From an uncultured Acidobacteriota bacterium (GTDB lineage: Bacteria; Acidobacteriota; Vicinamibacteria; Vicinamibacterales; UBA2999): a stretch of DNA of 64,000 bases. The notes under the pieces are model-generated. The model saw only the letters and a list, made by a program, of their open reading frames with translations, had not been told where the DNA came from and did no database searches. A program made the position numbers and the translations under genes. The stretch is from contig CAWIBL010000011.1 of assembly GCA_963834325.1 (NCBI GenBank), positions 1,094,109 to 1,158,108 on the forward strand. The letters are read 5' to 3'. Below, one piece after another: positions 12,122 through 52,766 of this stretch (position 1 is its first letter; each line of letters begins with the position of its first letter).

Positions 12122-12203
12122 TCCTCGAGCCTGCCTCCTGTACGAGATCCGCCCCGCCGGCGTTCTCACCTGGTACGGCCTGGCCGATTCCTGAGGTGAC
12201 GTA

Positions 12204-12542: not shown

Positions 12543-12572
12543 CTGTTTGACATTCGCCATACGGAGGATCAG

Positions 12573-13055: not shown

Positions 13056-13077
13056 ACACACGACGGTGCTGTCGCCT

Positions 13078-13116
13078 GCCGGTCACGGCCGTCCCACCGA
13101 CGGCGGCCGTGCCGGC
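13078..13116 (+). other. GC-rich stem-loop (possible terminator or RNA element) between paralog B and the histidine kinase
   Basis: GCCGGTCACGGCCG, then a 12-nt loop, then CGGCCGTGCCGGC. This gives 13 pairs with one bulge. No U-tract follows. Confidence 0.3.
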
Positions 13117-13142
13117 AGTGGTGTGGACCGGCGATCGCGGGA

Positions 13143-15407: not shown

Positions 15408-15420
15408 TCACGGCCACCCC

Positions 15421-16654: not shown

Positions 16655-16669
16655 GCTAAGGGCCCCCTT

Positions 16670-17152
16670 CTAGTTCCATACCCCGAGGGCCTTGCGCACC
16701 GCCACCATCTGACCGACGTGGTAGGAGACGTGATCGGCCGCGAGCAGCAACGCGCGCAAGTAGGTCTGCGAGGCTTCCCCGGTGGGCACCGTGGCGGTGA
16801 GATCGGTCACCTCGCGCGCCAGTTGCTGTAGCCGTTCCCGAGACGCCGTGCAGGCCGCGATGCTGTCCAACCACGCGGCCTCGTCGGCCGGCGCCGGCCG
16901 CTTCGGCCAGTAGTCGCCGGGCCAGGTCCGGTCGTGCACGTACTTGGCGTTCACGCAGAAATCGAGGATGTCGTCCTGCGCGATGCGGATGTGCTCGAGC
17001 AGTTGCCAGGGCGAGTGCTCGAAGCCGGGCGGGTGCACGCCGCGGGCGTGGGCCGGAATGCCGTCCACCGCCTTGTCGAAGCCGACGTGCGCGTCCTCCC
17101 AGTTCAACACCTGGACCAGGTGTTGGCGGATGACATCGTTGGGTCGTGGCAT
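16670..17152 (-). CDS. DinB-family protein
   Basis: ATG at 17152 (MPRPNDVIRQHL). The pattern SPWQLLEHIRIAQDDI .. DHVSYHVGQMV is a typical DinB His triad. Confidence 0.8.
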   Translation of the reverse strand: MPRPNDVIRQHLVQVLNWEDAHVGFDKAVDGIPAHARGVHPPGFEHSPWQLLEHIRIAQDDILDFCVNAKYVHDRTWPGDYWPKRPAPADEAAWLDSIAACTASRERLQQLAREVTDLTATVPTGEASQTYLRALLLAADHVSYHVGQMVAVRKALGVWN

Positions 17153-17207
17153 GGTCGCATCGCCTCCCTGGGCGCAGCTTAGCCCAGGGCGCGTGCGCGA
17201 CGTCCAC

Positions 17208-17549
17208 TCACGCCACGAGCGCGTCGAGCTTGGCAGCGCAGATGAAATCGTTCTCCGACAAGCCGCCGATCGCGTGCGTCGTGTAGGTGATCGTGCAGTA
17301 GCCCCAGCCGAACGCCACGTCCGGATGATGGCCCTGCTTGTCGCCGTGCCAGGCGGCCAGGTTGGCCAGTTGCACGGCTTTGGCAAAGCCCTTGAACTCG
17401 AAGCGCCGGGTGAGCGCCCCGGCCCCGGCGTCGAGCCGCCAGTCGGCATGCAGGTCGCCCAGCAGCCGGGCGCCGGCCTCGGCGTCGAGCGGCGGCGTGC
17501 CGCCCTCGCAGGGCTGGCAGGTGCGGTCGCGCAGGTCGCAGACGCTCAT
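17208..17549 (-). CDS. phhB: Pterin-4-alpha-carbinolamine dehydratase
   Basis: 113 aa from the ATG at 17549, overlapping the phhA stop as ATGA. The motifs are FKGFAKAVQLANLAAW, GHHPDV and LSENDFICAAKLD. Confidence 0.9.
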   Translation of the reverse strand: MSVCDLRDRTCQPCEGGTPPLDAEAGARLLGDLHADWRLDAGAGALTRRFEFKGFAKAVQLANLAAWHGDKQGHHPDVAFGWGYCTITYTTHAIGGLSENDFICAAKLDALVA

Positions 17550-18355
17550 GAGGCGAGCGCCGGCGCGGGCGCGTCCTTGGGCGGGAACTTGGGCGCGTGC
17601 AGCCCGAGCGATCGCGCCTCGGCGATGTCGGCCATCAGGTCGCGCTCGGCCACGCCGAACAGCTCGTCGAGGTTGTCGATGACGAAGTAGACGGGCTGAT
17701 GGATGTCGATGCGGTAGGGGGTGCGCAGGACGTCGATGACGTCGAACGGCCGGTACTCCGGCTCGCCGCCGACCGACCACGGCAGCTCGGTGGGCGAGGA
17801 GGCCAGGCCCGAACCCAGCGACTTGAGTTCGCCGTTCTCGCGGGTCAGGCCGAATTCAATCGAGAACCAGTAGAGGCGGATGAGCCACGAGTAGTCTTCT
17901 TTCGCGGCCCTGAGCCCAGCCTGGCCGATGGCGTGCGAGAAGCCGGCGAAGCGGGGATCGGCAAGCAGCGGGGAGTGACCGAAGATCTCGTGGAAGATGT
18001 CGGGCTCTTCGATGTAGTCGAAGTCTTTCCGCGACCGGATGAACGAGGCGGCCGGGAACTGGCGTTCGGCGAGCATGCCGAAGAAGCGCTTGAAGCCGAT
18101 GAGGGCCGGAACCGGCACCACGTTCCAACCCGTGCGGGCCCGCAGGATCTCCGAGACGTCGGGGCACTGCGGGACGCGGTCGAGCGGCAGGTTGACCGCG
18201 GCCAGGCCGTCCAGATAGGCCTTCGAGGCGTGACGGCGCACGTTGGGAATCTGCCGGGCGCACAGGTCGCGCCAGACCGCGTCTTCCTCGGGGGTGTAGG
18301 CGATGCGGCCGGACTCGTCAGGAATCTTGGCGACGTAAGACGTGGTGGCTGGCAT
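17546..18355 (-). CDS. phhA: Phenylalanine 4-hydroxylase (bacterial monomeric type)
   Basis: ATG at 18355 (MPATTSYVAKIP). The motifs are PDIFHEIFGHSPLLADPRFA, YWFSIEFGL and GAG-like LASSPTE. Confidence 0.9.
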   Translation of the reverse strand: MPATTSYVAKIPDESGRIAYTPEEDAVWRDLCARQIPNVRRHASKAYLDGLAAVNLPLDRVPQCPDVSEILRARTGWNVVPVPALIGFKRFFGMLAERQFPAASFIRSRKDFDYIEEPDIFHEIFGHSPLLADPRFAGFSHAIGQAGLRAAKEDYSWLIRLYWFSIEFGLTRENGELKSLGSGLASSPTELPWSVGGEPEYRPFDVIDVLRTPYRIDIHQPVYFVIDNLDELFGVAERDLMADIAEARSLGLHAPKFPPKDAPAPALAS

Positions 18356-18469
18356 GGTCAGCCGATATTGACCGGTGCGCGGTGAAATGGGTTGGCTATT
18401 CACGGGCAAAGAGCGCCGTAATGGCAATAGATTTCCTCGAAAAGCCGGTTAATAGGTATTCTGTGCCTC

Positions 18470-22985: not shown

Positions 22986-25931
22986 ATGGTGGCTGCTGCA
23001 CGACTCCTGCTGTTCATCTCGAGTGTGTTCGTCGCCGCGTCCTCTCCGGCCTTCGCCCAGCAACGCGGCGCGATCTCCGGGAAGGTGCTCGACCCGGATG
23101 GGCTGGCGCTGCCTGGCGCCACCGTGCGTCATCACCAACGCCGCGACCGGCTTCACCCGCGAGGCCGTCACCGCCGACACCGGCGCGTATTCGGTGCCGA
23201 GCCTCGAGCCCGGCACCTACGACGTGGCCGTCTCCATGGCCGGCTTCGGCAACGCCACCCGCACCGGGCTGGTGCTGGCGCCGGGCTCGGTCGTCACGCT
23301 CGAGTTGAAGCTCACCGTCGCCGGCGTTCAGGAGAACCTGGTGGTGACCGGCGAGTCGCCGCTCGTCGAGCGCACCAGCAACCAGATCGGCGGCAGCCTG
23401 TCGCGGCGCGAGATCGAAGAAGTGCCGTCGAACTTCCGCAACTTCACCGGCCTGACCCAGCTCATTCCGGGCATGACCCCGAATCCGGCGACCTCCACCT
23501 TCGAAGGCGGCCAGGTGGTGGCCAACGGGTCGCCGTCGCAGCAGAACGTCTACCTGATCGACGGGATGTACAACAACGACGACCGCCTGGGCGGCAGCCA
23601 GGGCACGCAGGTGCGCCTCGTCCTCGACAACATCGAGGAGTACCAGGTGCTGGCCAACCAGTACAGCTCGGAGTACGGCGGCGGCGCCGGCGCCATCATC
23701 AACATGGTGACCCGCGGCGGCACCAACGACATCCGCGGCCGCGTCTACTCGTACTTCCGCGACGAGACGCTCAACGCCCGCGGCAAGTTCCTGACCGCCG
23801 GTCAGCCCAAGCCGCCCGAGCGCACGCTGCAGGCCGGCTTCGGCCTGGGCGGTCCGATCGTCCGCAACCGCGCCCACTTCTACTTCACCTACGAGCGCGA
23901 CAACGAGGACATCGCCGGCCAGAAGCGCTTCCCGGCCGCGGCGGCGCCGCTGGCCGTGGACCAGGTCGGCTTCTTCACGGTGCGCGCCAACAACTACTTC
24001 GCCCGCGCCGACCTGCAGCTGAACGACCGCAACTTCCTCAACGGGCGCTGGCTGCTCGAGGACGCGGCCTCGCGCGGCGAGGGCTTCAACACCAACAACG
24101 CAGACCCCCGACGCCCAGGATTTCGGAGGCCGACCACGACACGCTGTGGGCCGGCACCTACACCAGCGTGATGACCGACCGGCTGTCGAGCGTCACCCGC
24201 TTCGGGCGCATCGGCGAAGAGCTGACGACGGCGCCGCAAGGCTTCTTCAACGACAGCGGCAAGGCCATCGGCTTCGACGGCCGCGACCCGTTCTCGATCG
24301 GCCAGCGCAACCAGCACGCCAGCTACATCACCGGCACCGGCGGCACCGGCCCGACCACGGTGATCCGCACCTACGTCGTCGACCAGGCGTTCAGCTACTT
24401 CATCCCCAGCCTGTTCGGCGGCGAGCACACCGTGAAGGCCGGCGGCGGTTACAGCTGGAACAACATGGACCCGCGCTCGACGTTCGATTCCGGCACCTTC
24501 CAGTTCCGCACCGACGCGCCCTACAACCCGGCCGACCCGGCCACCCATCCCTTCCAGTTCGACGTCACCGTCGGCCCCCGCAGCGACTACGGCTACGCGT
24601 GGTGTCGAAGGACCAGCGCCGCTACCTGTTCGTCGAGGACAAGTGGAGCGTCACGAGCAACCTGACCTTCAACCTCGGCCTGCGCTGGGACAACCACGAG
24701 CAGACGCCCAGCCACGACAACGCCTTCGCGCCGCGCGCCGGCTTCGCCTGGGACGCGCTCGGCACGGGACGCACCGTGGTCCGGGGCGGCATCGGCAAGT
24801 TCTACGCCTACGTGCCGGTGGTGCACGACCTGACCCTGCAGCAGAGCGGCGTCAGGACGCTGTTCCCGTCGATCTCGATCAACGCCGCCAGCCCGAATGC
24901 CAGTCTCGTGCTGATTCCCGACATGATCACCGACACCGCCGGCAACCCCGGCGTGGCCCGGCTGTCGCCCGCCGGCCAGGCGGTGCTGAACCGGTTGCGC
25001 GATGAAGTGGTCGCCGGGACCGGCTTCAACCGCAACCCGCGCATCGACAGCCCCGATCGCAAGATGCCCCACACCTGGTCGTGGAGCGCCGGGGTCAGCC
25101 AGGAGCTGTTCGGGCAGGTGGCGCTGTCGGTCGACTACGTCGCCAACGCGTCGCGCAATCAGCTCGGCGTCATCGACATCAACGAGCCGGTCAACGGCGT
25201 GCGCCCGGGCGTGGCCGCGTTCGACCCGACCGGCACGCTCATTCCGGCCGAGGCCCGCGGCGTGAGCTTCCAGCGCGTGCTGCAGTCGCAGACGAGCGAC
25301 GCTCTTCGACGGCGACTACAAGTCGATGCAGGTGTCGCTCGTGAAGCGCATGGCCAACCGCTGGAGCGGCCGCCTCGCCTACACCCTGCAGCGCAGCAAC
25401 TACGTCGGCGTCGGCAATCCCGACGCGCGCCGGGTGTGGCTCGACAACGACTCCGCGGGCCGACTACGGCGAGTTCCAGTCGAACCGCACCAACGTGTTC
25501 GCGGCCAGCGGCAGCTGGAACCCGTGGCGGACGCTCACCTTCGCCACGGTGGTCAGCGCCATCAGCGGCGCGCCGATCAACGAGACGGTCGGCCGCGACG
25601 TCAACGGCGACCTCGACAACAACGACCGGCCGATTCGCGGCATCGACGACCTGACCCGGCCCGATCGTCTCCGAGCTCGATTCGCAGGGCCGGGCCGTGC
25701 CGTTCGGCATTCGCGGCCCCGGCTCGTTCCTGGTCGACCTGTCGATGCGCTACCAGCTGCCGCTCGGCGGCCGGCTCGACAGCCTCGACTTCTTCTTCGA
25801 CGTGTTCAACGTCTTCAACCGCCTGAACGAGGTCGCGCCGACCGGCAACCGTTCGTCGCCGAACTTCCTGATTGCCGACCTCGGCCCAGTTCCCGCTGCA
25901 GTCGCAGCTCGGCATCCGGCTGCGGTTCTGA
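22986..25931 (+). pseudogene. TonB-dependent-receptor-like outer-membrane protein (CarboxypepD_reg N-domain type); about 8 frame breaks
   Basis: It has the signal MVAAARLLLFISSVFVAASSPAFAQ and GKVLDPDGLALPGATV. Later segments include ..NLVVTGESPLVERTSNQIGG.., ..YGGGAGAIINMVTRGGTN.. and ..NLGLRWDNHE. The C-terminus is FNVFNRLN...QLGIRLRF with the stop at 25929-25931. The frames used are 0,1,2,0,2,0,1,2,0. Confidence 0.85.
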
Positions 25932-25941
25932 GGCCACGGTC

Positions 25942-26890
25942 ATGCGGGCCCTGGCAATTGCGGCGGTGATGGGGGTGGCGCTGCTCGGCGGCGCCGCCGC
26001 CCCGGCGATGGCCCAGATGGAGCTGGGCGTCATCAAGGGCCGGGTCGTCGACGAGGCCGGCGCGCCGCTCGAGGGCGTGAAGATCCGGCTGGTCAACGTC
26101 GACCGCGGCCGCGAGGTCGTGCTCACGAGCGGCAAGGACGGCCGCTTCTACCGGCGCGGCCTGCAGGCCGTCGAGTACGAGATGACGGTCGAGCGCGAGG
26201 GCTACCAGCCGATCAGCGACAAGGTGAAGCTGGTCGCCGGCACCGACCGCGACTTCGACTTCAAGCTGGCCAAGGCCGCCGCCGGCGGCTCGAAGGAGTT
26301 CCAGGCCGGCGTCGCCGCCTTCAGCAGCGGCAACTTCGCCCTGGCCGCCACGCAGTTCGAGGCGGCCATCGCCCAGGCGCCGACCGTGCCGGCGCTGCAC
26401 GTCAACCTGGCGCTGGCCTACTTCCGCCTGAACCGCGTCACCGACGCGGTGGCGAGCCTCGAGAAGGCGGCGGCGCTGGCGCCGACCGATGCCGGCCATC
26501 CAGTATCAGCTCGGCAGCGCCTACGTCGACATGCAGGCCTACGACAAGGCCGTGGCGGCGCTCGAGAAGGGGCTGGCGGGCGAAGCCGAACCTCGCCACC
26601 GACGCCCTGGCCCTCGAAGCCGCGTCGACGCTCGGCGCGGTCTACTTCGCGCAGGGCAAGGTCGGCCGAGGCCGAAGCGCAGTTCCAGCGCGTGCTCGCG
26701 GCCAAGCCCGGCGCCGCCGGGGCCACGCTCGGCATGGCCAAGATCCACTTCAGCAAGGGCGAGGTGGAGAAGGCCCTGGCGCTGTTCGACCAGGTCGTGG
26801 CCGACCATCCCGGCACGCCCGAGGCCACGCAGGCCGCGACGTTCATCAAGGAGCTCCGCAAGGGCCCACTTCAAGGGGGACGTACAGTGA
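25942..26890 (+). pseudogene. Secreted CarboxypepD_reg-like plus TPR-repeat protein; about 4 +1 frame breaks
   Basis: It starts MRALAIAAVMGVALLGGAAAPAMAQ and contains GVIKGRVVDEAGAPLEGVKIRLVN. The TPR-like segments NFALAATQFEAAIAQAP, YQLGSAYVDMQAYDKAVAALEKGL and MAKIHFSKGEVEKALALFDQVV lie in frames 1,2,0,1,2. The stop at 26888-26890 overlaps the next ATG as TGATG. Confidence 0.7.
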
Positions 26891-28013
26891 TGAAGCACAT
26901 CGGCACCGCCAGCGCGGCGCTCTCGCTCCTGATCGCCGTCGGTCGTCATCGCGCAGGAAAAGGGCGGCGGCGACGAGACCGGCCCCTACGAGGTGGTGGC
27001 CGGCTGGCCCCAGAACTACTGCGGCGACGGCTTCGTCATCGGCTCGACCGGCGGCATCTGGGCGGAGAGCCCGGACCGCGTCTACATCTTCAATCGCGGC
27101 TGCCTGCCGGCGCATCAAGGACGCCCGCGGCGCGGCCGAACAGCTTCATTCCCGCCGCGCAACGCCTCGGGCTACGACCTGTCGCAGAAGGATCCGGCCC
27201 GGCACCCGCGCTGGGATCACGTGTTCAACGTGGTCGACCGCGAGCGGCAAGCTCATCGAGTCGTGGGACCAGCACAACAAGATGTTCGTGCGTCCGCACC
27301 GGGTGCTGGTCAACCCCTACGACGCCGAACGTCATGTGTGGCTGGTCGACGACGGCGCCCACGCCATCTACAAGTTCACCCGCGACGGCAAGAAGCTGGT
27401 GATGACGGTGGGCACGCCGATGCAGCCGGGCGACGACGGCACGCACTTCAACCGGCCGACCGACATCGCGTGGCTGCCCGACGGCACGTTCTTCGTCAGC
27501 GACGGCTACGTCAACACCCGCGTCGCCAAGTTCGACAAGGACGGCAAGTTCCTGATGACGTGGGGCCAGAAGGGCAACGAGCCGACCGAGACGCGGCCCG
27601 GCTACATGAACACCGTGCACGCCATCGCCATCGACAAGAACCGGCGCATCTACATCAGCGACCGGGCCAACTCGCGCATCCAGGTGTTCGACGAGAACGG
27701 CAAGTTCCTCGACGCCTGGCCCAACATCCGCCGGCCGTATTCGGTGCTGCTGTCGGAGGACCAGCACCTGTGGGTGGCCGACGGCACCACGCAGAAGTTC
27801 ACCAAGTTCGACCTGACCGGCAAGCTCCTCTACTCGTGGGGCACGTTCGGCGCGTTCCCCGGCGGCTTCTGGGGCGTGCACCAGTTCCACACCGACAGCG
27901 AGGGCAACCTCTACACCGCCGACGTGCACGTCGGCCGGCCGCAGAAGTTCCGGCCGAAGAAGGGCGCCAACCCGGCCCACATCATCGGCACCTACATGCG
28001 CGGCACGAACTGA
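26890..28013 (+). pseudogene. NHL-repeat six-bladed beta-propeller, PAL (peptidyl-alpha-hydroxyglycine alpha-amidating lyase)-like, copy 1; about 5 +1 frame breaks in the first 360 nt
   Basis: GGGGGA lies upstream of the ATG at 26890. The sequence starts MKHIGTASAALSLLIAV. It contains MQPGDDGTHFNRPTDIAWLPDGTFFVSDGYVNTRVAKFDKDGKFLMTWG, TVHAIAIDKNRRIYISDRANSRIQVF and GVHQFHTDSEGNLYTADV. ORF 27282..28013 is intact. Confidence 0.8.
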
Positions 28014-28069
28014 TCGGCGGCGCGGCGCCGCCGCGACGGCGTTCACCCTCCTGTTCGCGGAGGCCGACG

Positions 28070-29340
28070 ATGGTGCGACCCGGCTGGCTGCTCCTGTCGA
28101 TGGGAATCGTGCGCCGGTGACGCTGGCGCGGTGCGCGCCGTCCCCGGCCTCGTCCGAGAACGCGCCGGCGGCGTCCGGCTCGGCGCGCCGCCACGGTCGC
28201 CAGCGAGCGCGGCGGGCAGGAGGAGTTCGGGCCCTACGAGCCGGTGCCCAACTGGCCGCAGCCGCTGCCCGACGGCGCCGACGGCGTCACGCACGACGGC
28301 TGGACCTGGGGCTCGGTGGGCGCGGTCTACGCCGAGTCGCCCGACCGCATCTGGATTGCGCAGCGCGGCGAGCTGCCGCTGCCGCCGGGCGCGGCGCCGT
28401 GGACGCCCTACGCGATGCTGAGTCCCGTCGCGCGGCAGCGCCACCGGCAACGACGACGGCCTCGGCGCCACGTGCGAGCCTGCCGCCAAGCGCGGCTGGG
28501 AGCGCCGCTACCACCACGTCATCTTCGTCGTCGACCGCGACGGCAAGATGGTGCAGCAGTGGCCGCAGCACGACACGCTGTTCGACAGGACCTGCGGCCG
28601 CGGCCCGCACAAGATCAAGATGAGCCCGTACGACCCCGAGACAAGCACGTCTGGGTGTTCGACGATCAGCTCCACGTCATCCACAAGTTCACCTACGACG
28701 GCAAGCTGGTCATGACGCTCGGCACCAAGGGGCAGCGCGGCCGCGACGCCGGCCGGCTCTTCGACCGTCCGACCGACATCGCCTGGCTGCCCGACGGCAC
28801 GTTCTTCATCACCGACGGCTACGGCGGCACGCGCGTGGCCAAGTTCGACAAGGACGGCACGTTCCTGATGGACTGGGGCGCGGCCGCCGAAGGACCCGAA
28901 GCAACCCCGGGCCCAACGAGTGGAACACCGTGCACAGCATCGCCATCAGCGACGACCGGCGGCTGTTCATCGTCGACCGCGGTCATCGCCGCATGCAGGT
29001 GTTCGACGAGCACGGCAAGTTCCTCGACATGTGGACGCACCGGGGTGCGCTCGTCGCCCTACGCGCACTTCATCTCGACGGACCAGTTCCTCTGGGTGGC
29101 CGACGGCGGCACCATGCGGATGCTGAAGTACGACCTGAACGGCACGCTACCTCTACGGCTGGGGCGCGCCGGGTGGGCAGCCGGGCCAGTTCAACGGCGC
29201 CGCACTCCCTGACGGTCGACCAGGAAGGCAACATGTACACGGCCGAGGTCTTCGGCGGCCGGGTGCAGAAGTTCCGGCCCAAGCCGAGCGCCGACCCGGC
29301 CAAGGTGATGGGCCAGGAAGCGCGGCTGGGCGGGAGCTAG
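28070..29340 (+). pseudogene. NHL-repeat beta-propeller, PAL-like, copy 2 (paralog of copy 1); about 11 frame breaks
   Basis: GGAGG lies 7 nt upstream of the ATG at 28070 (MVRPGWLLLSMGIV). The sequence contains EEFGPYEPVPNWPQ, HKIKMSPYDPE/KHVWVFDD, LFDRPTDIAWLPDGTFFITDGYGGTRVAKFDKDGTFLMDWG, NTVHSIAISDDRRLFIVDRGHRRMQVF and HSLTVDQEGNMYTAEVFGGRVQKFRPK. Confidence 0.75.
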
Positions 29341-29435
29341 GCGGCGCCCCGACTGCCTGGCGCCCCGACCGCCTTGCGCTTGACAGCACCCGGCGGCAGG
29401 CGTAACGTGCCCGCTCAGCCATAGAACCCATCGCC

Positions 29436-31115
29436 ATGCGGCCCGCCCGTCGCTCCTGGCGCCCTCATCCGCTCGTGCTCGCCATCTTCGCCACGATTGG
29501 CGCAGCCGGGCTGGTGCTGTACCTGCAGCATCGCGCCATCACGGCGCTGCAGTCGCAGACGCAGGTCATCGTGCGCCAGCTCGTCCGAGCAGGCCGCCGA
29601 CGACGTCGCCCGGGGCCTGCGGCGCACGCTCAACGGACCGATCTTCGACACCCTGGCCGCGGTCAACCACCCCGACCTGCGCGCCGGCCGCATGGACCTC
29701 GTGGCCCGCAAGTTCGCCGAAGGGCTCGAGGCCTACCCGCACGTCGAGCGCTTCTTCGCCTGGCGGGCGCAGCCCACGCTCCGCCGCCGCCGACGTGCTG
29801 TTCCACGGCCGCACCGGCGGGTTCGTCCGCGACGCCGCGATGGGCCGCGACGTGCTCGACCTGGCCCGCCGTCACGCCGGGTCGCAGCAGATCTACGTCG
29901 CCGCCGAGGGCGTCGGGCACGGGGCCCGGCAGATGTTCCTGCGCCTGTTCTGGACCGACGCCCGGCGCCTCGACTACTTCGCCGTGCTCGGCTTCGTCAT
30001 CGACCCGACGAGCCTGCCGCGAGCAGCTCTTCGCCGGGCGCCACGGCGCCGGCCTCGAGACGCTGCTGGCCCGGCGCGGCGGCGAGCTGCCGTTGCAGCT
30101 CCGCGTGTCGCGACGAGCGCGGCACGGTCGTGTTCGGGACGCTGGCGCCCGGGGTCAAGGGCGTGCGGCTGCCGTTCCCGATGCTGTTCTATCCCGCCGA
30201 CGACATCCGCTCGCGCCTGGCCGCCGAAGTGACGGCGCAGCCCTGGACGATCGAGGTGGGCGCCCCGGCCATTGGCGGGGCCATGGCCGGCAGCGGCTAC
30301 GGCTATGGGCCGACCGCGCTGTCGCTGCTGCTGATGCTGGTGGCGCTCGGGCTCGCCTTGCAGGCGCACCGCCGCTCCGCCGAGCTGGCGCGGATGCAGA
30401 CCGACTTCGTGGCCCACGTGTCGCACCAGCTCAAGACGCCGCTGTCGCTGCTGAGCGCGGCGACCGAGACGCTGCAGATGGACCGCATCCGCTCGCCCGA
30501 GCGGCTGGCCGAGTACCTCGACACCATCCGCGCCGAGGCGCAGCGGCTGGCCGCGCTGGTGCAGCGCGTGCTCGAGTTCTCGCGCGTGCAGCAGCAGCGC
30601 AGCTACGAGTTCGAGCAGGTCGACCTGGGCGCGCTGGTGCGCGAGACGGTCGATGCCTTCGCGCACGGCCTGGCCAGCCGGCAGGTGGTCTTCGACGTGC
30701 GCCTGACCGGCCCGGGGCCGTTCGTGCTGGCCGACCCGGCGGCCCTCGAGCAGGTCGTCGCCAACCTGCTCGACAACGCCGTCAAGTACTCGAGCCGCCG
30801 ACCAGCCGGTGTCGGTCACCGTCCGGGCCGAACGGCTGTGGGCCATCATCGAGGTCGCCGATCGCGGCGTCGGCATCGCCGCCGCCGACCAGGAGCGCAT
30901 CTTCGAGCGCTTCTACCGCGTGCCGGGCGCCGGCCATCGCCAGGGCTTCGGCCTGGGCCTGCCGATCGTGCGCGAGCTGGTGCACGCGCAGGGCGGCAGC
31001 GTCGACGTGTCGAGCGCGCTCGGCGCCGGCAGCACGTTCCGGGTGATGCTGCGCTGCGTCACCGGGCCGATCGTCAACGGACAGGGCGCCGCTGCGCCAG
31101 CCGGAGGCCGTGTGA
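29436..31115 (+). pseudogene. Membrane sensor histidine kinase (2 TM, periplasmic domain, HisKA, HATPase_c); about 6 +1 frame breaks
   Basis: TM1 is HPLVLAIFATIGAAGLVLYL and TM2 is GPTALSLLLMLVALGLAL. The H-box is FVAHVSHQLKTPLS, the N-box is NLLDNAVKYS, and the G boxes are DRGVGI and GFGLGLPIV. The frames used are 0,1,2,0,1,2,0. The stop at 31113-31115 overlaps the next ATG as TGATG. Confidence 0.8.
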
Positions 31116-31826
31116 TGAACGCCGACCTGGTGCAAGGCCGAGGACGCCAAGCACGTGCTGGTGGTCGAGGACGAGCCGCAGATGCGCGCGATGCTGGCCG
31201 ACAACCTCGAGTTCGAGGGCTACCGCGTCACCGCGGTGGCCTCGGGCGAGGAGGCGCTGCAGGCGGTGGCCGGGCGCCACTACGCGCTGCTGCTCCTCGA
31301 CGTGATGCTGCCGGGCATGAGCGGCTTCGACGTGTGCCAGCAGCTCCGCGCCCGGGCGCTGCACATGCCGATTGTCGTGCTCACGGCCCGGACGCACGAG
31401 CAGGACCGCATCCGCGGTCTCGACCTCGGCGCCGACGACTACGTCAGCAAGCCGTTCAGCGTGCGCGAGCTGCTGGCGCGCGTGCGCGCGCTGGTGCGGC
31501 GCGACGACTGGCACTCGCCCGGCGGCGGCGAGTTCACGCTCGGCGACGTCGTGGTCAAGCCGCAGCAGCGGCTGGTGCTGCGCAAGGGCCGGCGCGTGGC
31601 GCTCTCGGCCCGCGAGTTCGAGCTGCTGCGCTACCTCTTCGCGCACCGCAACGAGGTGGTCAGCCGCGAGCAGCTGCTGCGCGACGTGTGGGGCTACAGC
31701 CACCTGTCGGTCACCCGCACCGTGGACAACTACGTGGCCAAGCTGCGCACGCACATCGAGCCGCGTCCGCACGAGCCGCGCTACCTCATCACCGTGCACG
31801 GCAGCGGCTACCAGCTGCTGGCGTAG
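31115..31826 (+). pseudogene. OmpR/PhoB-family response regulator; one +1 break at ~31138, otherwise intact
   Basis: After repair the N-terminus reads MNADLVQ/AEDAKHVLVVEDEPQMRAML. The receiver has LLLDVMLPGMSGF and ADDYVSKPF. The winged-helix part has REFELLRYLFAHRNEVVSREQLL, TVDNYVAKLR and ITVHGSGYQL. Confidence 0.9.
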
Positions 31827-44039: not shown

Positions 44040-45869
44040 TTAGAAGCCCGCGGGCCGCTGGCGCGCCACGTCGAGCGCCTGTTCCATGGCCACGCCGACC
44101 CGGCCGATGGTGCCTTCGTCGAACAGGCGCCCGATCAGGGTGACGCCGTGCGGCACGCGCCGCGGCGGATCGAACGTGGGCAGCGGGTGCGCCGGGTCGG
44201 GCGCCCAGTCGCTGCGCGCCTGCGCGACCGTCACGAAGCCGGCGCGCAGGGTCAGCGACGGGTGCCCGGTGAAGTTGCCGATGGTCAGCATCTCGTCGCG
44301 CAGCGACGGCACGAGCAGGACATCGACGTCGGCAAAGAGGCGCGCCATCTCGCCGGCGACCTTGCGGCGCAGGCGGTCGGCCTGCACGAAGTCGACGGCC
44401 GAGAGGAAGCGCGACATGCGGAAGAGGTTCGGCCAGGCGTCCGGGACCTGCACCTTCAGCTGGTCCACGCCGTGCGACAGCGTGAGCTCTTCGAAGGCGG
44501 CCGCGGCCTCGCTGAAGAGGATCGTGCTGCAGCGACCCGTAGGGCCAGTCGGGCAGCGTCACTTCGACCGGCGTCAGGCCGAGCCTCTCGACGAGGTCGA
44601 GCGCGGCGCGGTCCACGTCGGTGGCCGGGTGGCGCCGTCATCCACGCGGGAAAGAAGCCGACCCGCAGCCCCTGCACGCGGCGCGGTGGCATCGACGTCC
44701 AGGAAGCACGGCACGCTCGACACGTCGCCGGCGTCGGGCCCGCTGATGGCCTGGAGCACGAGCATCGCGTCCTCGACGCCGCGCGTCATCGGCCCGAGCT
44801 TGTCGAGCGACCAGCACAGCGTCATCGCCCCGGTGCGCGGCACGCGGCCGAAGGTGGGCCGCAGGCCGGTGACGCCGCAGCGCATCGCCGGCGCGATGAT
44901 GCTGCCGCCGGTCTCGCTGCCGATCGAGAAGCCGACCAGGGCCGCGGCAGTCGCCGCGCCCGGTCCGGCGCTCGACCCCGACGCGCCTTCCTCGAGCAGC
45001 CACGGGTTCATCGTCTGCCCGCCAAACCAGATGTCGTTCAGCGCCAGCGCGCCCAGGCTCAGCTTGGCGACGAGCACCGCGCCGGCCTCGGTGAGCCGCC
45101 GCACCACCACCGAGTCGGCCGCCGGCACGCGGGTGCGGAACGGCTCGGCCCCGTAGGTGGTGGCGATGCCGGCCGTGTCGAGCAGGTCCTTCACGCCGTA
45201 GGGGATGCCGTGCAGCGGTCCACGGTAGCGCCCGGCCGCGATCTCCGCGTCGGCCTGCGCCGCCTGGCGCAGCGCCAGCTCCCTGGTCGTGGTGATGACG
45301 CTCCGCAGCTGTCCGTCGAACGCGTCGATGCGGGCCAGATAGATCTGCGTGAGCCGCGTGGAGGTGAGCTGCCGCGCTTCGATCCAGCGCGCCAGCTGCG
45401 TGACCGGCGCAAAGGCGATGTCGGCGTCGGCCGCCGGCAGCGGCGTGGCGGCGGCGCCGGTGCCGGTGCGCACGAACCGGTCGCGCGCGGCCACGGGACG
45501 CGGGTCGAGGCGGCTCGGCGTCCACACCGTGGCCGGGGCCACCGTGTCGTCGAGCGCCACCGCGCGCGGCCCGGTGCGGCGCTCGAGCAGCGGCGCCAGC
45601 GACCGCGGCCACGCCGCCGCGGCCAGCTCGCGTTCGGCCGGCCGCATGGTGATCTGCGCGAGCTTCTCCGCTTCGGCGAACGTGGCCGCCGAAACCGGCG
45701 GCCCGGTGACCGGGCCGGCGCCGAAGGTCGGGGGCGCGCCGGGCGCGGGCGCGCCAGCCGCCGGCGCCGTCGTGGCAGCAGGCGCCGGGGGCAAGGGGTC
45801 GCGACACGCGGCGGTGGCCGCCATCAGGCCCATGGGCGCGGTGATCAGGAACTGGCGGCGGGTGTTCAT
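44040..45869 (-). pseudogene. Amidase-signature (GatA-like) amidase with a Tat signal; three +1 breaks (~44690, ~44630, ~44520)
   Basis: It starts MNTRRQFLITAPMGLMAATAAC and contains GIPYGVKDLLDTAG and GSETGGSIIAPAMRCGVTGLRPTFGRV. The C-terminus continues through frames 2,1,0,2 to ..GRLFDEGTIGRVGVAMEQAL. Confidence 0.85.
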
Positions 45870-45910
45870 GGCGTGGGTGGCCCAGGGTATACCATGCTCG
45901 CCGAGCCTCG

Positions 45911-46870
45911 ATGACGACGACGCCCTCCGTATCCTCCGTGCGCGCGGCCGTGGTCCAGGCCAGCGCGGTGCCCTTCGACAGCGACGCCTGCGTGGACAAG
46001 GCGGTGCGCCTCATCGGCGAGGCCGCGGCGCAGGGCGCGCGCGTGGTCGTGTTCCCCGAGGCGTTCGTCGGCGGTTATCCCAAGGGCCTCGACTTCGGGC
46101 TGGTGATCGGCGCGCGTGATCCGGCGGGGCGCGAGGAATTCCGCCGTTACCTCGACGCCGCCATCGCCGTGCCCGGACCGCAGACAGCGCGGCTCGGCGA
46201 AGCGGCCGCGGCCCACGGCTGCCACGTGGTCATCGGGGTCATCGAACGCGACGGCGGCACCTGCTATTGCACCGTCCTCTTCTTCGGGCCCGACGGCGCG
46301 TATCTCGGCAAACACCGCAAGCTCATGCCGACGGCGCTCGAGCGGATGATCTGGGGCTTCGGCGACGGCTCCACGCTGACCGCCGTCGACAGCCCTTACG
46401 GCCGCATCGGCGCGGTGATCTGCTGGGAGAACTACATGCCCATGCTGCGCATGGCCATGTATGCCAAGCAGGTCGCGCTCTACTGCGCGCCGACCGCCGA
46501 CGACCGCGACACCTGGCTGCCGTCGATGCGTCACGTCGCGCTCGAGGGCCGCTGTTTCGTGCTCACCGCCTGCCAGGTGCTGCGCAAGGACGAGTTCCCG
46601 CCCGACGTGCGCGTGGGGCTCGGCGACACCCCCGACGCGCTGCTGATGCGCGGCGGCAGCGCCATCATCAGCCCGCTCGGCGCGGTGCTGGCCGGGCCGG
46701 AGTTCGGCGGCGAGGCCATCCTCACCGCGGACCTGGACCTGCACGAGATCGGCCGCGGCAAGTTCGACTTCGACGTCGTCGGCCACTACGCGCGGCCCGA
46801 CGTGTTCCAGTTGACGGTGAACGAAGCGGCCATGGCGCCGGTGGCGGTGAAGACCGAGCCGCCCCGGTAG
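45911..46870 (+). CDS. Nitrilase / CN-hydrolase family enzyme
   Basis: 319-aa intact ORF. The E-K-C triad contexts are VVFPEAF, HRKLMPT and VICWENYMP. Confidence 0.9.
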   Translation: MTTTPSVSSVRAAVVQASAVPFDSDACVDKAVRLIGEAAAQGARVVVFPEAFVGGYPKGLDFGLVIGARDPAGREEFRRYLDAAIAVPGPQTARLGEAAAAHGCHVVIGVIERDGGTCYCTVLFFGPDGAYLGKHRKLMPTALERMIWGFGDGSTLTAVDSPYGRIGAVICWENYMPMLRMAMYAKQVALYCAPTADDRDTWLPSMRHVALEGRCFVLTACQVLRKDEFPPDVRVGLGDTPDALLMRGGSAIISPLGAVLAGPEFGGEAILTADLDLHEIGRGKFDFDVVGHYARPDVFQLTVNEAAMAPVAVKTEPPR

Positions 46871-46920
46871 GGCGAAGATGCACGCCGGGTGGCCCCATGA
46901 CGCACCAGGGAGAAGAGCGG

Positions 46921-47874
46921 ATGCGCACGAATCGCCGGCCCGGTCGAATCGCCTTTGCGGCCCTGGCCCTGGTGGCCGGCCTGGCCGGCGGCCGCCCGGC
47001 GGCGCAAGCCGACGCGGGCGGCATGAGGGCCCGCATCGAGGCCGCGCTCGATGCCGACGTCAGCCAAGTGTTGACGTCGTGGCGCCTGCCCGAGGCGGCG
47101 AAGGCCGGCGGGCGGCCGGTGACGCCGCGCTCGCTCCTCAGTCACACCTCCGGCGCCGACGACGGCTTCGGCTTCCCCGGCTACGATCCAGCCGCGCCGC
47201 GGCCCACCCTGGCGCAGATCCTGGACGGTCAGGCGCCGTCGAACGTGGGCCCGGTGCGCTTTGCCCGTCCGCCGTTCAGCGGCTACAAGTACTCCGGCGG
47301 CGGCGTCACCCTGATGCAACTGGCCCTGGCCGACCTCACCGGCCAGCCCTTTGCCGCATTCATGCAGGCCACGGTGCTCGGGCCGCTGAAGATGACCAGC
47401 AGTTCCTTCGTGCAGCCGCCTCCGCCCGAGACGGCCGCGCAACTGGCGCGGGCCCACGACTCGCAGGGCCGGACCATGAACACCGCCTGGCACGTCTATC
47501 CGGAACAGGCGGCGGCCGGGCTGTGGACGACGCCCTCCGACCTGGCGCGCTTCGTCATCGAGGTGCAGCGCGCCGTGCGCGGCCCTGCCGGGGCGGTGCT
47601 GTCGCAGGCCTCGGCCCGCGAGATGACCGCGCCGGTCGGCGTGGGCCCGTATGCCGTCGGCCTCGCCGTGGACATGCGCGGCGAGGGGTGGTATTTCTCG
47701 CACGGCGGCTCCAACTGGGGCTTCCAGGCCGACCTCGTCGGCCACGTTCGCAAGGGCTACGGCGTGGCCGTCATGACCAACGGCGATCGCGGCCGCGCCC
47801 TCATCACCGAGATCGAAGGGCGGGTGGCCGCCGCCTACGGCTGGGACACGCTCGACAAGCCGCTGGTGCGCTGA
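46921..47874 (+). CDS. Beta-lactamase-fold serine-hydrolase homolog lacking the SxxK segment
   Basis: ATG at 46921 (MRTNRRPGRIAFAALALVAGLAGG). The sequence runs straight from the signal into LDADVSQVLTSWRLPE..LLSHTSG. In family members this region lies after the SxxK helix. YSGGG and HGGSNWGF are retained. Confidence 0.7.
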   Translation: MRTNRRPGRIAFAALALVAGLAGGRPAAQADAGGMRARIEAALDADVSQVLTSWRLPEAAKAGGRPVTPRSLLSHTSGADDGFGFPGYDPAAPRPTLAQILDGQAPSNVGPVRFARPPFSGYKYSGGGVTLMQLALADLTGQPFAAFMQATVLGPLKMTSSSFVQPPPPETAAQLARAHDSQGRTMNTAWHVYPEQAAAGLWTTPSDLARFVIEVQRAVRGPAGAVLSQASAREMTAPVGVGPYAVGLAVDMRGEGWYFSHGGSNWGFQADLVGHVRKGYGVAVMTNGDRGRALITEIEGRVAAAYGWDTLDKPLVR

Positions 47875-48663: not shown

Positions 48664-49296
48664 ATGACTCTGGCCCTCAGTCCGCGCGAGCGCCTGCGCG
48701 AATCGACCCGCGACGCCATCCTCGACGCCGCCGCCCGGAGCTTCAACGCCGGCGCCGCCGGCGCCGTGCGGATGGAAGACATCGCGGCCGGCGCGGGTAT
48801 CGCCGTGGGCACGCTCTACAACTACTTCACCGACCGGCAGACGCTCGTCGCCGCGCTGCTGCAGTCGCGCACCCAGCGCCTGCTCGACGCGCTCGACGCG
48901 GCCGCGGCCGCGGGCGCGGCCGAGGGCCATCCCGTCGCCGCCGCCGCCGTGACCGAGGAGCTGCGGCAGTTCGTGGCCACGCTGGTCAGGCATTGGGACG
49001 CCAATCGCATCCTGCTCACGCTGATGATCGAGGACCTGCTGCAGCGCGGCGCCGACGCCCGCGCCGTGCATCGCCAGCACACCGTCGCCACCCAGTTGCT
49101 GGCCCGCGCGCAGACGCTGATGGCCCGCGGCATCGACGCCGGCGTGCTGCGCCCGGCCGATACCGGCATCTACGCCGCCATGCTGCTCGGCATGGTCCGC
49201 GGCGTCGTCACCAAGTCGATCGTCGGCGGCGAGGCCGCCTTTGCGCACCACGGCGACGAGATCGTGCGCGTCTTCCTGCGCGGAGCCGCGGCGTGA
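48664..49296 (+). CDS. TetR/AcrR-family transcriptional regulator
   Basis: The HTH region is ILDAAARSFNAGAAGAVRMEDIAAGAGIAVGTLYNYFTDRQ. The 210-aa ORF is intact. Confidence 0.9.
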   Translation: MTLALSPRERLRESTRDAILDAAARSFNAGAAGAVRMEDIAAGAGIAVGTLYNYFTDRQTLVAALLQSRTQRLLDALDAAAAAGAAEGHPVAAAAVTEELRQFVATLVRHWDANRILLTLMIEDLLQRGADARAVHRQHTVATQLLARAQTLMARGIDAGVLRPADTGIYAAMLLGMVRGVVTKSIVGGEAAFAHHGDEIVRVFLRGAAA

Positions 49297-49337: not shown

Positions 49338-50222
49338 ATGCCCATTGTCCGAAACGCGCCTCGCCGTCAGCTCGCGGCCGCGGCCTGGGCCATCGTCCTG
49401 GCCCTGCCGCTGGGCACGGCCGCTCAGACCCCCGCCCCGGCGCCGTCCGCCGCGCCCCAGGTCCTGCCGCTCGAACCGGCGCGTGAGCGCGGGGTCAGCG
49501 TCACGCCGGCCTTCGAGGGCTGGTATGAGAACGCCGACGGCAGCTTCACCCTGCTCGTCGGCTACTTCAACCGCAACAAGGCCGAGACCTTCGACATCCC
49601 GGTCGGGCCCAACAACCGCATCGAGCCGGGCGACATCGACCAGGGCCAGCCCACCTATTTCGCCACCGGCCGCAACTGGGGGGTGTTTGCCATCAAGGTG
49701 CCCAAGGACTTCGGCACCCGGATGCTCACCTGGACGATCGTGTCCAACGGCGAGGTGCAGGCGATTCCGCTCGGTCTCACCAAGGGCTACACCATCACCC
49801 CCTTTGTCGAATCGGGGATGGGCAACCGCCCGCCGGTCTTCACCTTCGCGCCTGGCGCGGAGAAGTTCACCGGCCCGCCCACGGCCGTCGCCGCCACCAA
49901 GGCGGCCGCCGTCGGCCAGCCGGTGACCCTGGAGGTGTGGGTCGAGGATCCCAAGCAGACCAAGGTCGGCTTGCCCTCGTCGCGCTCCGCGCCCGGCGTG
50001 GCCCAGGTCTCGTTCCACAAGTTCCGCGGTCCAGGCCGCGTGACGTTCGACCCGGTGCGGATGCCGGTGCCCAATCAGGGCGACATGGTGAGCACCAAGG
50101 CGACGTTCAGCCTGCCGGGCGAATACCTCGTGCGCGTGCAGGGCAACGACGAATCGGGCGAAGGCGGCGCTGGGTTCCAGTGCTGCTGGACCAACACCTA
50201 CGTCAAAGTGTCGGTGAAATAG
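49338..50222 (+). CDS. Secreted hypothetical protein (unknown family)
   Basis: ATG at 49338 with the signal MPIVRNAPRRQLAAAAWAIVLALPLGTAAQ. The sequence is beta-rich and ends GFQCCWTNTYVKVSVK. It lies 41 nt after TetR and 12 nt before the next gene. Confidence 0.65.
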   Translation: MPIVRNAPRRQLAAAAWAIVLALPLGTAAQTPAPAPSAAPQVLPLEPARERGVSVTPAFEGWYENADGSFTLLVGYFNRNKAETFDIPVGPNNRIEPGDIDQGQPTYFATGRNWGVFAIKVPKDFGTRMLTWTIVSNGEVQAIPLGLTKGYTITPFVESGMGNRPPVFTFAPGAEKFTGPPTAVAATKAAAVGQPVTLEVWVEDPKQTKVGLPSSRSAPGVAQVSFHKFRGPGRVTFDPVRMPVPNQGDMVSTKATFSLPGEYLVRVQGNDESGEGGAGFQCCWTNTYVKVSVK

Positions 50223-50234
50223 GGAGCCACGAAC

Positions 50235-51585
50235 ATGACCCGTGAGAACCAGAGACAGGCACGAAACGGGGCGTTGGGCCTTACGGTGCTGGCCGCCGCG
50301 CTGTGGCTGCCGGGCTCGGCCGCGGCTGGCCAGGCGCCGGCAGCGGCGCCCACCTTCTCGAAGGACGTAGCCCCGATCTTCCAGGCCAAGTGCGAGGCCT
50401 GTCACCGGCCCGACTCGATCGCGCCGATGTCGCTCGTCACCTATCAGCAGGCGCGGCCGTGGGCCCGCTCGATCAAGGCGCGCGTGCTCGAGCACCAGAT
50501 GCCGCCCTTCCAGATCGACCGCACCGTCGGCGTCACCAAGTTCAAGAACGACGAGTCGCTGAGCGACGGCGAGCTGCAGACCATCGTGAAGTGGGTCGAC
50601 GCCGGCGCGCCGCAGGGCGACCCCAAGGAGCTGCCGCCGGCCCGGGAGTGGCCGAGCGACCAGGGCTGGAACTTCGCCAAGATCTTCGGGCAGGCCGAGC
50701 CGGACCTGGTCGTCAAGTCGGAGTCGTTCACCATGCCGGCCGTGGCCCAGGACGCGTGGGACGAGCGCGTCACCCCGTCGGGCATCACCGAGCCGCGCTG
50801 GGTGCGGGCCATCGAGATCCGGCCCAACGCCGTCAAGGGCCGCAAGATCACCCACCACGCCATCGCCTACCTGCAGCAGGACGAGCCCGGCGTCGTGACC
50901 ACGCCGGGCCTGCCCGTGCCGTTCATGGAATGGGCCGTCGGCAAGCAGGGCGAGCTGATGCGCCCCGACACCGGCAAGCTGCTGCTGCCCGGCTCGAAGT
51001 TCCGCTGGGACATCCACTACTCGCAGGCCGGCGAGGAAATCACCAGCAACGTCGAGATGGGCATCTACTTCTACCCCAAGGGGCAGGAGCCGAAGTACCG
51101 CAACTCGCTGTCGCTCGTGCCGGCCGCGCTCGGCACCCTCGACATCCGGCCCAATGCCATCACCGTGAGTGAAGGCTTCTTCCCGCTCAAGGACAACGCC
51201 CGCATCGAGAGCTTCCAGCCGCACATGCACCTGCGCGGCAAGGCCATGATGGTCGAGGCCGTCCTGCCGAGCGGCCAGCGCCAGGTGCTCAGCAACGTCG
51301 AGCGACTTCAACTTCATGTGGATGACCACCTTCGTCTACGCCGACGACGTGGCGCCGCTGCTGCCCAAGGGCACGCTGCTCAAGGTCACCGCGTGGCACG
51401 ACAACACCACCGGCAAGAAGAGCAATCCCGATCCGAACCAGTGGGTCGGCTGGGGCGACCGGACGGTCGACGAGATGGCCCATGCCTGGATCAACATCGT
51501 CTACATGAAGGACGACGAGTACAAGGCCGAGGTCGAGAAGCGCAAGAGCGGCGCGGCCACGACTTCGGCGCGCGACCGGCAGTAG
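50235..51585 (+). pseudogene. Secreted CxxCH (heme c motif) protein fused to a PHM/DBH-like type-2 copper monooxygenase fold; one +1 break at ~51300
   Basis: It has a signal peptide and FSKDVAPIFQAKCEACHRPDSIAPMSL. It then has ITHHAIAY, 53 aa later WDIHYS, then FQPHMHLRGKAM, and about 90 aa later TVDEMAHAWINIVYM. Removing one base joins ..VLSNV to SDFNFMWMTTFVYADD. Confidence 0.7.
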
Positions 51586-52766
51586 AGCCGCCGGCGCCGG
51601 CGCACGATTCGGCCTTTCGCACGGATGGGGTTCGCTGGTAATCTCTCCCCGTTCGCCCGAGCAACGGCGTGCGGTTCTGTGCCTCAAGCAGGGCAGAGCT
51701 GCCGCCGATAACCCGGGTGAACTGAGCTGCTGAACTTGGGCGGAGGCGGGGCCTGGTCTCGCTGCCGTCGCGGGTCATGGCAGCGGATTTGGAGCCGCCC
51801 TGGTGCCCCGCCGCGTCCGCGTCTGCCTCGTCCTCTGCATCCCCGTGGCGTTCGTGCTGGGCGGCTGGCACGCGCAACGCGGCATGGCCGAGCAACTGGC
51901 CACGAGCGACGCGCGCCTGGCCGCGCTCGGCGACGAACTGGCAAGCAGCATCCTCGAGATGCGCGAGTGGCAGGCCGGCCCAGGCGCGGCCCGCGTGTCG
52001 GGGGGCGCGGGCGGCGAGGCCGAGCTGGTCGACGAGATCAAGCGGCAGTTGCAGCACGAGATGGGGCTGATGCCGATCAAGCTGCTGCGTGAGCGGCGCG
52101 AGAGCTTCGTCGAGCTGAACGCCGTCGACGCCGCCGGCAAGGTCGGCTACGGCACCGCCGGTTACCTCGGGAACGGTTACTTCATTACCGTGAAGCATGC
52201 GGTGGTGGCCCTCGACGACGACGGCGGCGACGGCCGGGGCCGCGACATCATCTCGATCAAGCTGCGCTACAAGGATCAGGACCTGCCGGCGCAGATTGTC
52301 GATGCCGGCGACGCCACGGCCGAAGTCCATTCCGGCGACTGGGCGCTGATTCGCGTCAAGGGCGCCATCGACCTGCCGCCCCTCCGGGTCAACGCGAGCT
52401 ACGCCTACGAGTTTGCCGACCCCATCTTCCGGCTGGGCAACGACTACTCGAAGGGCATCATCCTCAGCTCCGGCTACGTCGGCCAGCGCACGGCCAACGG
52501 GCTGGTCACCTGCCTCACCGACGGCCACCCCGGGGTGTCGGGCGGCGGCGTGCTGGATCAGCAGGGCGATCTCGTCGGCATCCCCATCGGGCGGATGCAG
52601 GGCGACTACCGCTTCTCGTTCATCCTGCCGCTGCGCGACGAGATGTTCCGCAAGTTCAAGCCCGCGGCCCCGCCAGCGCGCCGCGTTCCGGCCCCGGTAT
52701 CGGCGGCGGTGGCGGGCGAAGTGGCGCAGGCGCCGGCCCCGGCCCCGCTGGACGCCCCGGTGGCCG

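Follow-up and report, generated by a model that had tools for sequence, protein, structure and literature searches.

The gene at positions 50235..51585 (+ strand) of the window, a 64,000-nucleotide stretch from an uncultured Acidobacteriota bacterium (Vicinamibacterales, UBA2999; assembly GCA_963834325.1, contig CAWIBL010000011.1), encodes a protein of 449 residues, once a +1 insertion that interrupts it is corrected, in which a class-I cytochrome c domain precedes a core homologous to that of peptidylglycine alpha-hydroxylating monooxygenase (PHM) and DBH. With a probability of roughly 0.6, the locus is taken to encode a periplasmic two-subunit heme-copper monooxygenase, with a PHM/DBH-type core that would be fed by its own heme c. 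A preliminary description of this DNA had drawn attention to a heme c attachment motif standing beside motifs reminiscent of the two copper sites of PHM, CuH and CuM; all of the motifs that it quoted were located on the + strand within the gene, and the pattern that they form is far beyond chance.

The N-terminus of the enzyme is signal-like, with a basic start, a hydrophobic core and an A-x-A motif, and a Sec signal peptide was predicted by eye at residues 1-31 (50235..50327, + strand), ending between LPGSAAA and GQ. The confidence (pLDDT) of the AlphaFold2 (AF2) model is low at residues 1-30, and the enzyme is probably secreted or periplasmic. The cytochrome c domain follows at residues ~40-125 (50352..50609, + strand) with three helices, placed by the model at residues 41-52, 70-85 and 111-122. 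The segment DVAPIFQAKCEACHRPDSIAPMSL occupies residues 44-67 and holds the CxxCH motif, C53-E-A-C56-H57 (50391..50405, + strand), in which H57 would be the proximal heme ligand, and M89 in HQMPPF (50499..50501, + strand) is a candidate distal ligand, presumably equivalent to the Met in the MPP motif of c551-type cytochromes.

The two-beta-sandwich core lies C-terminal to the cytochrome c domain, the PHM/DBH-like part making up the last 290 residues. The His pair of ITHHAIAY, H207-H208 (50853..50858, + strand), corresponds to the CuH ligands H107/H108 of PHM, and the His of WDIHYS, H261 (51015..51017, + strand), which lies 53 residues past H208 as had been claimed, to the CuH ligand H172. A further 69 residues on from H261, FQPHMHLRG supplies H330-M-H332 (51222..51230, + strand), equivalent to the CuM ligands H242/H244 of PHM, and M414 in TVDEMAHAW (51475..51477, + strand) corresponds to the CuM Met, M314 of PHM. 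This Met had been reported in TVDEMAHAWINIVYM, where it was indeed found, at about 90 residues from the HxH motif, a spacing that proved wrong as M414 lies 82 residues from H332. PHM has disulfides; in the corrected sequence the cysteines of the enzyme are confined to CxxCH, so that it can have none of those of PHM.

The relationship to PHM and DBH emerged from profile and structure searches. A profile (A1) built from an alignment of 68 full-length relatives with 28-92% identity, which was also the basis of the AF2 model, matched human DBH (4zel) at E=3e-8 and rat PHM (1opm, 1phm and others) at E~2e-7, and the homologues that it found in the PDB were animal PHM and DBH with no others. All six copper ligands fall on DBH ligands within one profile alignment, in which vHH is aligned to VHH and lHYh to VHY of PHM and DBH, PHmHlrGk to HTHHLGK of PHM and HTHLTGR of DBH, and deM to EEM of DBH. 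A profile of the C-terminal sandwich alone (A5) gave no match in the PDB at E<=1, such that the alignment of the Met depends on the way in which the full-length profile matches DBH and on the match of the fold.

The AF2 model (pLDDT 91.2; predicted TM-score, pTM, 0.86) folds residues 41-122 into three helices, after which come two tandem beta-sandwich (jelly-roll) domains that have the topology of PHM. The candidate CuH site, a His-His pair with a third His, is in the N-terminal sandwich and the candidate CuM site, His-x-His with Met, in the C-terminal one. The best 31 Foldseek matches in the PDB were all PHM or DBH (E 8e-12 to 3e-8, ~295 aligned columns), with target-normalised TM-scores of 0.50-0.62 and about 13-14% identity, and the next matches were PNGase-type sandwiches at E>1e-5. 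The highest TM-scores were to chains A and C of 6ala and chain D of 5wja, which are citrate-containing crystal structures of the H108A and H107A mutants of PHM, and might reflect a more closed arrangement of the domains in the model. Judging by the high pTM, the cytochrome c domain may be packed against the copper core. The interpretation of the His and Met motifs as PHM/DBH-like copper sites is thus supported, the domain having the PHM/DBH fold rather than that of an unrelated beta-sandwich family and keeping both the H-H...H and the H-x-H...M positions, with homology to PHM and DBH supported at the superfamily level only.

The ligand residues are conserved far beyond the close orthologues. 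Across the 68 relatives the invariant columns are C53, C56, H57, P64, M89, P90, W120, P156, H207, H208, H261 and H330, with P91, H332 and M414 each at at least 90%, and the ten ligand residues (C53, C56, H57, M89, H207, H208, H261, H330, H332 and M414) are identical in 119/119 close homologues. The CxxCH motif, for which loss from orthologues had been considered, is therefore kept in both sets. In a hidden Markov model (HMM) alignment that also took in 150 distant cluster representatives, many of which are fragments, each ligand residue was present in these at at least 97% of ungapped positions, and M414 in 98/100 ungapped representatives.

The family itself is very large, is found mostly in Acidobacteriota and carries no Pfam or NCBIfam label. 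A word-indexed search returned at least 8,000 matches to the enzyme, the best 120 of which are ~445 residues long with 74-92% identity, lack a Pfam label and are named hypothetical protein, cytochrome c or mono- or diheme cytochrome c family protein; the named sources among these 120 are Vicinamibacterales or Acidobacteriota. An exhaustive search of representatives of clusters at 50% identity gave 13,893 clusters at E<1e-3 and 1,408 at E<1e-30, and a look-up of cluster names yielded just "hypothetical protein" or "peroxiredoxin". Several genomes hold two paralogues of the enzyme, and in soil Acidobacteriota a genome may hold several. In keeping with the earlier statement that no characterised example was known, none was found in the PDB (2026 copy) and no description of a bacterial cytochrome c-PHM/DBH fusion was found in the full-text literature searched, the coverage of which leaves out subscription-only papers. 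Extra fusions occur in the superfamily (P0136, P0207, P0250), with N-terminal AhpC/TSA peroxiredoxin or thioredoxin-like domains, EF-hands, TPR repeats or an alpha/beta-hydrolase at the C-terminus; in P0136 (1251 aa), two Pfam matches of AhpC/thioredoxin-like type and two of heme type suggest a duplicated module.

Immediately upstream of the enzyme lies a gene that the preliminary description had missed (49338..50222, + strand), encoding a protein of 294 residues with a predicted signal peptide and two Ig-like beta-sandwich domains. Its stop codon is separated from the start of the enzyme by a 12-nt gap, in which the enzyme has a ribosome binding site, GGGAG, 8 nt before its ATG. This partner gave no Pfam, NCBIfam or PDB sequence match, its profile found nothing in the PDB at E<=5, and its AF2 model (pLDDT 73.9) has generic Ig-like domains as Foldseek neighbours. 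Conserved motifs include EGW, GYxNRN, DxGQPTxF and a C282-C283-W284 (CCW) close to the C-terminus, which follows a flexible loop rich in Gly and is present at at least 95% in 73 partners derived from related loci. No His is conserved across these 73, and H227 is invariant among 44 close partner homologues. Export of the partner by the Tat pathway was considered and rejected, an RR motif being present in just 19/44 homologues.

The association of the two genes was followed in 83 related loci found with a 10-sequence alignment, 80 of which are from species-representative genomes and almost all of which are labelled Acidobacteriota (Vicinamibacterales, Bryobacterales or Terriglobia). A partner homologue adjoins the enzyme on the same strand in 78/83 of them; it precedes the enzyme gene in the closest orthologues and follows it in a clade with 52-67% identity. 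Natural fusions were also identified, in which the partner precedes the enzyme (P0123), the enzyme precedes the partner (P0137, a cluster of six members from different sources, and P0135), or the enzyme is flanked by the N-domain of the partner on its N-terminal side and by the C-domain of the partner on the other (P0128). Adjacency in two orders and fusion in three arrangements are strong evidence that both proteins act as one complex, and the pair is probably a two-subunit enzyme.

In PHM and DBH, CuH accepts electrons and CuM binds O2 and abstracts a hydrogen from the substrate, two electrons being used per turnover, which in animals come from ascorbate. Ascorbate is not expected in the bacterial periplasm, so that a bacterial and periplasmic setting makes it an unlikely donor for the present enzyme. 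By extension from PHM and DBH, H207, H208 and H261 would hold the electron-transfer copper and H330, H332 and M414 the O2-activating copper. The fused cytochrome c (C53xxC56H57, M89) would replace ascorbate, drawing single electrons from a periplasmic pool in which soluble cytochromes c or quinohemoprotein dehydrogenases may be the donors. The heme would relay these electrons to CuH, after which a C-H bond in the substrate would be hydroxylated at CuM, and the 294-residue protein would be the stoichiometric partner subunit. The TetR-family gene upstream suggests that use of the enzyme may be substrate-inducible and catabolic. More speculatively, a dehydrogenase containing pyrroloquinoline quinone (PQQ), where one is a neighbour, could oxidise the hydroxylated product and return electrons, much as methanol dehydrogenase has been proposed to be coupled to particulate methane monooxygenase. 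Extended to the whole family, this would be a very widespread and so far overlooked class of bacterial periplasmic C-H hydroxylases with two subunits, hard-wired to the respiratory electron pool by their own heme c and possibly recycling the electrons of PQQ dehydrogenases, a generalisation put forward tentatively and at a little under even odds.

The PQQ dehydrogenases come from the paralogous clade, in which 24 loci encode a PQQ quinohemoprotein dehydrogenase (PQQ E=1.8e-162 with a C-terminal Cytochrome_CBB3 domain), often directly following the enzyme-partner pair (for example L035:11304-13217, L046:8200-10323 and L060:8130-10217). A small cytochrome c is found in seven paralogous loci and an AhpC/TSA redoxin as a separate gene in seven, the redoxin also being fused N-terminally in 9/68 relatives. 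A protein of ~360 residues without a Pfam match sometimes also follows the pair. The adjacency of the PQQ dehydrogenase may be a link of pathway or of electron recycling, and the neighbourhood as a whole points to periplasmic redox metabolism without naming a substrate.

The same neighbourhood could be read with the electrons running the other way, the dicopper site oxidising a substrate and heme c passing the electrons to the respiratory chain, as in a dehydrogenase or oxidase. The PQQ quinohemoprotein dehydrogenases and small cytochromes c of the paralogous loci are donors to the periplasmic cytochrome pool and would suit such a scheme. There is also precedent for copper enzymes that reduce cytochromes c, an example being thiocyanate dehydrogenase (PMC9456337). 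The full set of CuH and CuM ligands is nevertheless strictly kept in the enzyme, including the Met typical of the O2-activating site of PHM and DBH, which argues against reversed flow. No member of the PHM/DBH fold is known to be a dehydrogenase, and electron flow in this direction is considered unlikely.

Several observations weigh against a heme-copper monooxygenase of the kind proposed. The Pfam profiles of the known copper monooxygenases, Cu2_monooxygen (PF01082) and Cu2_monoox_C (PF03712), which the preliminary description had expected to be informative, gave no match on the corrected protein even at E<=1; in relatives scanned singly the matches were weak, Cu2_monoox_C appearing in 19/68 (best E=1.3e-5) and Cu2_monooxygen in 2/68. 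For the cytochrome c domain there was a weak Cytochrome_CBB3 match at residues 46-120 (E=0.007, 17 bits vs a cut-off of 27), with matches at E<1e-3 in 23/68 relatives. Scans of the corrected enzyme with Pfam and NCBIfam thus gave nothing above threshold, and a single-sequence search of the PDB found weak cytochrome c matches only, PccH (4rlr, E=0.012) being aligned at the N-terminal motif. The partner has no recognisable cofactor site. CCW is kept in the fused protein P0123 and missing from P0137, P0135 and P0128, such that the motif is not essential to the superfamily. The equivalents of the substrate residues of PHM (R240 to Q328, N316 to H416 and Y318 to W418) vary across the superfamily. 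Lastly, the uncorrected enzyme as assembled lacks its final 94 residues, M414 among them.

The strict pairing of the two genes has been weighed against another relationship, in which the partner is the substrate and the enzyme hydroxylates or cross-links its residues, for example around Cys-Cys-Trp, to build a protein-derived cofactor. A maturase of this kind has a precedent in MauG, which builds tryptophan tryptophylquinone (TTQ), and the conservation of CCW in the 73 partners, after a loop that is flexible and Gly-rich, is what such a role would lead one to expect. Covalent fusion of enzyme and partner speaks against it, as does the fact that the fused P0137, P0135 and P0128 keep all of their copper and heme ligands without CCW, and an enzyme conserved at 74-92% across many genomes suits a catalytic subunit over a maturase. 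The partner is therefore regarded as quite unlikely to be the substrate and is retained as a subunit of the proposed monooxygenase.

As to what that monooxygenase acts on, the residues of rat PHM that bind the C-terminal glycine of its substrate, namely R240, which holds the carboxylate, and N316 and Y318, the latter two standing at positions +2 and +4 from the Met, are replaced in the enzyme by Q328, as in DBH, and by H416 and W418. Since these residues are replaced and variable, peptidylglycine specificity is not expected, and even the type of reaction may be different. Their variability together with the paralogy of the family suggests that substrates have diversified.

A genuine bacterial amidating enzyme, hydroxylating glycine-extended peptides or N-acylglycines as PHM does, would have the fold and ligands of PHM on its side. 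It would also agree with amidase, CN-hydrolase and beta-lactamase-family hydrolase genes lying upstream in the window and in the orthologous locus L084, with an amidase and an amine oxidase in L002, and with NHL-repeat beta-propeller genes near the PHM-like gene in eight paralogous loci (for example L060:4253-5554), which weakly match the PAL lyase (3fvz, E=8.6e-10). The hydrolase neighbours are, however, common to close orthologues only, and the substrate residues just described differ from those of PHM. A role of the NHL genes as equivalents of PAL was not supported, since generic NHL proteins (Thin, TRIM71) outscored it and the genes are seen in those eight loci only and not near the window gene. 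Peptide amidation is accordingly judged very unlikely.

The closest known systems remain PHM (1PHM, 1OPM, 1SDW), DBH (dopamine beta-hydroxylase; 4ZEL) and tyramine beta-monooxygenase, which are grouped as the "copper type II ascorbate-dependent monooxygenases". The enzyme shares with PHM and DBH the two-beta-sandwich core and six copper ligands at equivalent positions, within the common motifs vHH, HY, HxHxxGK and (D/E)EM. Unlike them it carries a heme c domain at the N-terminus, lacks DOMON and PAL domains, is bacterial and periplasmic and has an obligate partner protein, and unlike PHM it does not retain the glycine-binding substrate residues. No characterised member of the superfamily shares its fused heme c, its obligate partner or its location in a bacterial periplasm.

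Similar solutions to electron supply are known from other proteins. Among the cytochrome-c-tethered nitrite reductases, the three-domain NirK of Ralstonia pickettii is a periplasmic copper enzyme with a one-electron donor of its own, a covalently fused class-I cytochrome c, and the same design is proposed for the present enzyme; the fold of NirK, however, is that of the cupredoxins, its copper is of type 1 and type 2, it reduces nitrite, and the catalytic parts are not homologous. PQQ quinohemoprotein alcohol and sugar dehydrogenases likewise join a periplasmic catalytic domain to a Cytochrome_CBB3-type heme c; they are not relatives, having a beta-propeller fold and a heme that accepts electrons from the substrate, and they may be an electron source or the next pathway step for the enzyme. 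The cytochrome domain of cellobiose dehydrogenase feeds lytic polysaccharide monooxygenases, and cytochrome b561 and ascorbate feed DBH and PHM in animal vesicles. In these systems, as would apply by analogy to the present enzyme, a heme protein gives single electrons to a mononuclear-copper oxygenase site, whereas their heme is heme b and not covalent heme c, their components are separate proteins and their folds are different.

PHM and DBH, the animal enzymes through which amidated peptide hormones and noradrenaline are made, are the standard examples of non-coupled dicopper monooxygenases, and to our knowledge all members of this type that have been studied are animal, ascorbate-dependent enzymes. 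A bacterial branch would add new enzymology and would point to a large number of oxygenases, as yet without annotation, in bacteria that are abundant in soil, with thousands of entries named "cytochrome c", "peroxiredoxin" or "hypothetical protein" becoming candidates for heme-copper oxygenases with an obligate partner. If the proposal is correct, these bacteria would oxygenate extracellular or periplasmic substrates independently of ascorbate and of NAD(P)H. A covalent heme c would also offer a spectroscopically addressable, stoichiometric electron donor for studying electron transfer between CuH and CuM. Debate continues on the route of the second electron between these two coppers and on whether the closed conformer is active (PMC12164859, PMC9064607).

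The enzyme gene in the window is split, as the preliminary description had implied. The open reading frame (ORF) 50235..51641 encodes 468 residues with an out-of-frame tail, and the remainder of the enzyme lies in the ORF 51316..51585. Deletion of one surplus G at 51300 (+ strand), identified by DNA alignment with the orthologous loci L084 and L001 and in the blastn indel list, joins the two, orthologous proteins reading SNVSDFNFMW or SHADNFNFMW across the junction, and the corrected 449-residue enzyme is colinear with its ~445-residue homologues. The insertion is outside any homopolymer and is missing in L084 and L001. Programmed +1 frameshifting was considered and rejected, no slippery or stop context being seen around 51300. 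The frameshift is either an assembly error or a very recent inactivation, and the copy as written in this assembly may be non-functional.

A true pseudogene, in which the G at 51300 is real, the CuM Met is lost and the locus is decaying with its neighbours, would concern the copy in the window and not the enzyme family. It would account for an uncompensated insertion that no homopolymer explains and for the damage nearby, namely an amidase gene, 6 kb upstream, in which stop codons lie between three 1-nt insertions, a beta-lactamase-family gene short by ~260 nt vs the syntenic L084, and a region at 24-31 kb of the window full of frame switches. Constraint persists downstream of the lesion, however, as the codons 3' of 51300 differ from those of L084 in the corrected frame by six synonymous and two non-synonymous changes and every family-invariant residue is intact. 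The source contig of 1.83 Mb would fit a long-read metagenome-assembled genome, in which indel errors are common, and several 1-nt indels within one 8-kb block fit an error-prone assembly equally well. Frameshifted read-through versions (P0144, P0157) are present in other public assemblies too, such that indel artefacts in these high-GC genomes are not peculiar to this window. Decay of the window copy is on balance possible but doubtful. P0144 and P0157 themselves have garbled Arg- or Gly-rich stretches between recognisable parts of the gene pair.

Upstream of the partner gene by 41 nt is a gene for a TetR-family regulator (48664..49296, + strand; Pfam TetR_N E=1e-11, TetR_C_24), which is probably the first gene of the operon. 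It occupies the same position in L001, L084 and L006, overlapping the partner gene by 4 nt in L001. Further upstream are amidase, CN-hydrolase, beta-lactamase-family and RibD_C genes, and the window encodes on the downstream side a trypsin-like peptidase, a luciferase-like monooxygenase and an outer-membrane protein of the TonB type. A search around the operon yielded neither a sigma-70-like promoter nor an intrinsic terminator, and Rfam and tRNA scans of the window gave no matches.

The 8-kb block around the enzyme has 84% nucleotide identity to the syntenic L084, and the bases inserted at the various lesions share no sequence context. The amidase gene (44043-46010, - strand) is apparently broken, the Pfam Amidase match of the upstream ORF covering profile positions 2-221 of 445 only, and the insertions that set it apart from L084 are at 44522, 44630 and 44679, with stop codons separating its two ORFs. 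The beta-lactamase-family gene (~46900-47874, + strand) lacks its ~260 nt from the 5' part by comparison with L084, where it encodes 404 residues, and has a 1-nt insertion at 46987; its Pfam match begins at profile position 74, and the usual position of the catalytic Ser motif may presumably fall in the missing part.

Elsewhere in the window, positions 24000-31200 form 7 kb without a long ORF of normal codon-position GC pattern and with ~15 switches of coding phase, in which a TonB-type outer-membrane barrel, CarboxypepD_reg with TPR, NHL and HisKA are present as partial Pfam pieces in overlapping + strand ORFs of differing frames, a pattern that arises either from many indel errors or from decayed genes. 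Two runs of three consecutive same-frame ORFs with good coding signal were also seen, at 12195-13877 (+ strand; single stops at 12540-12542 and 13053-13055) and at 15173-18448 (- strand; single stops at 16670-16672 and 17546-17548), and these may perhaps be adjacent genes that share a frame by accident.

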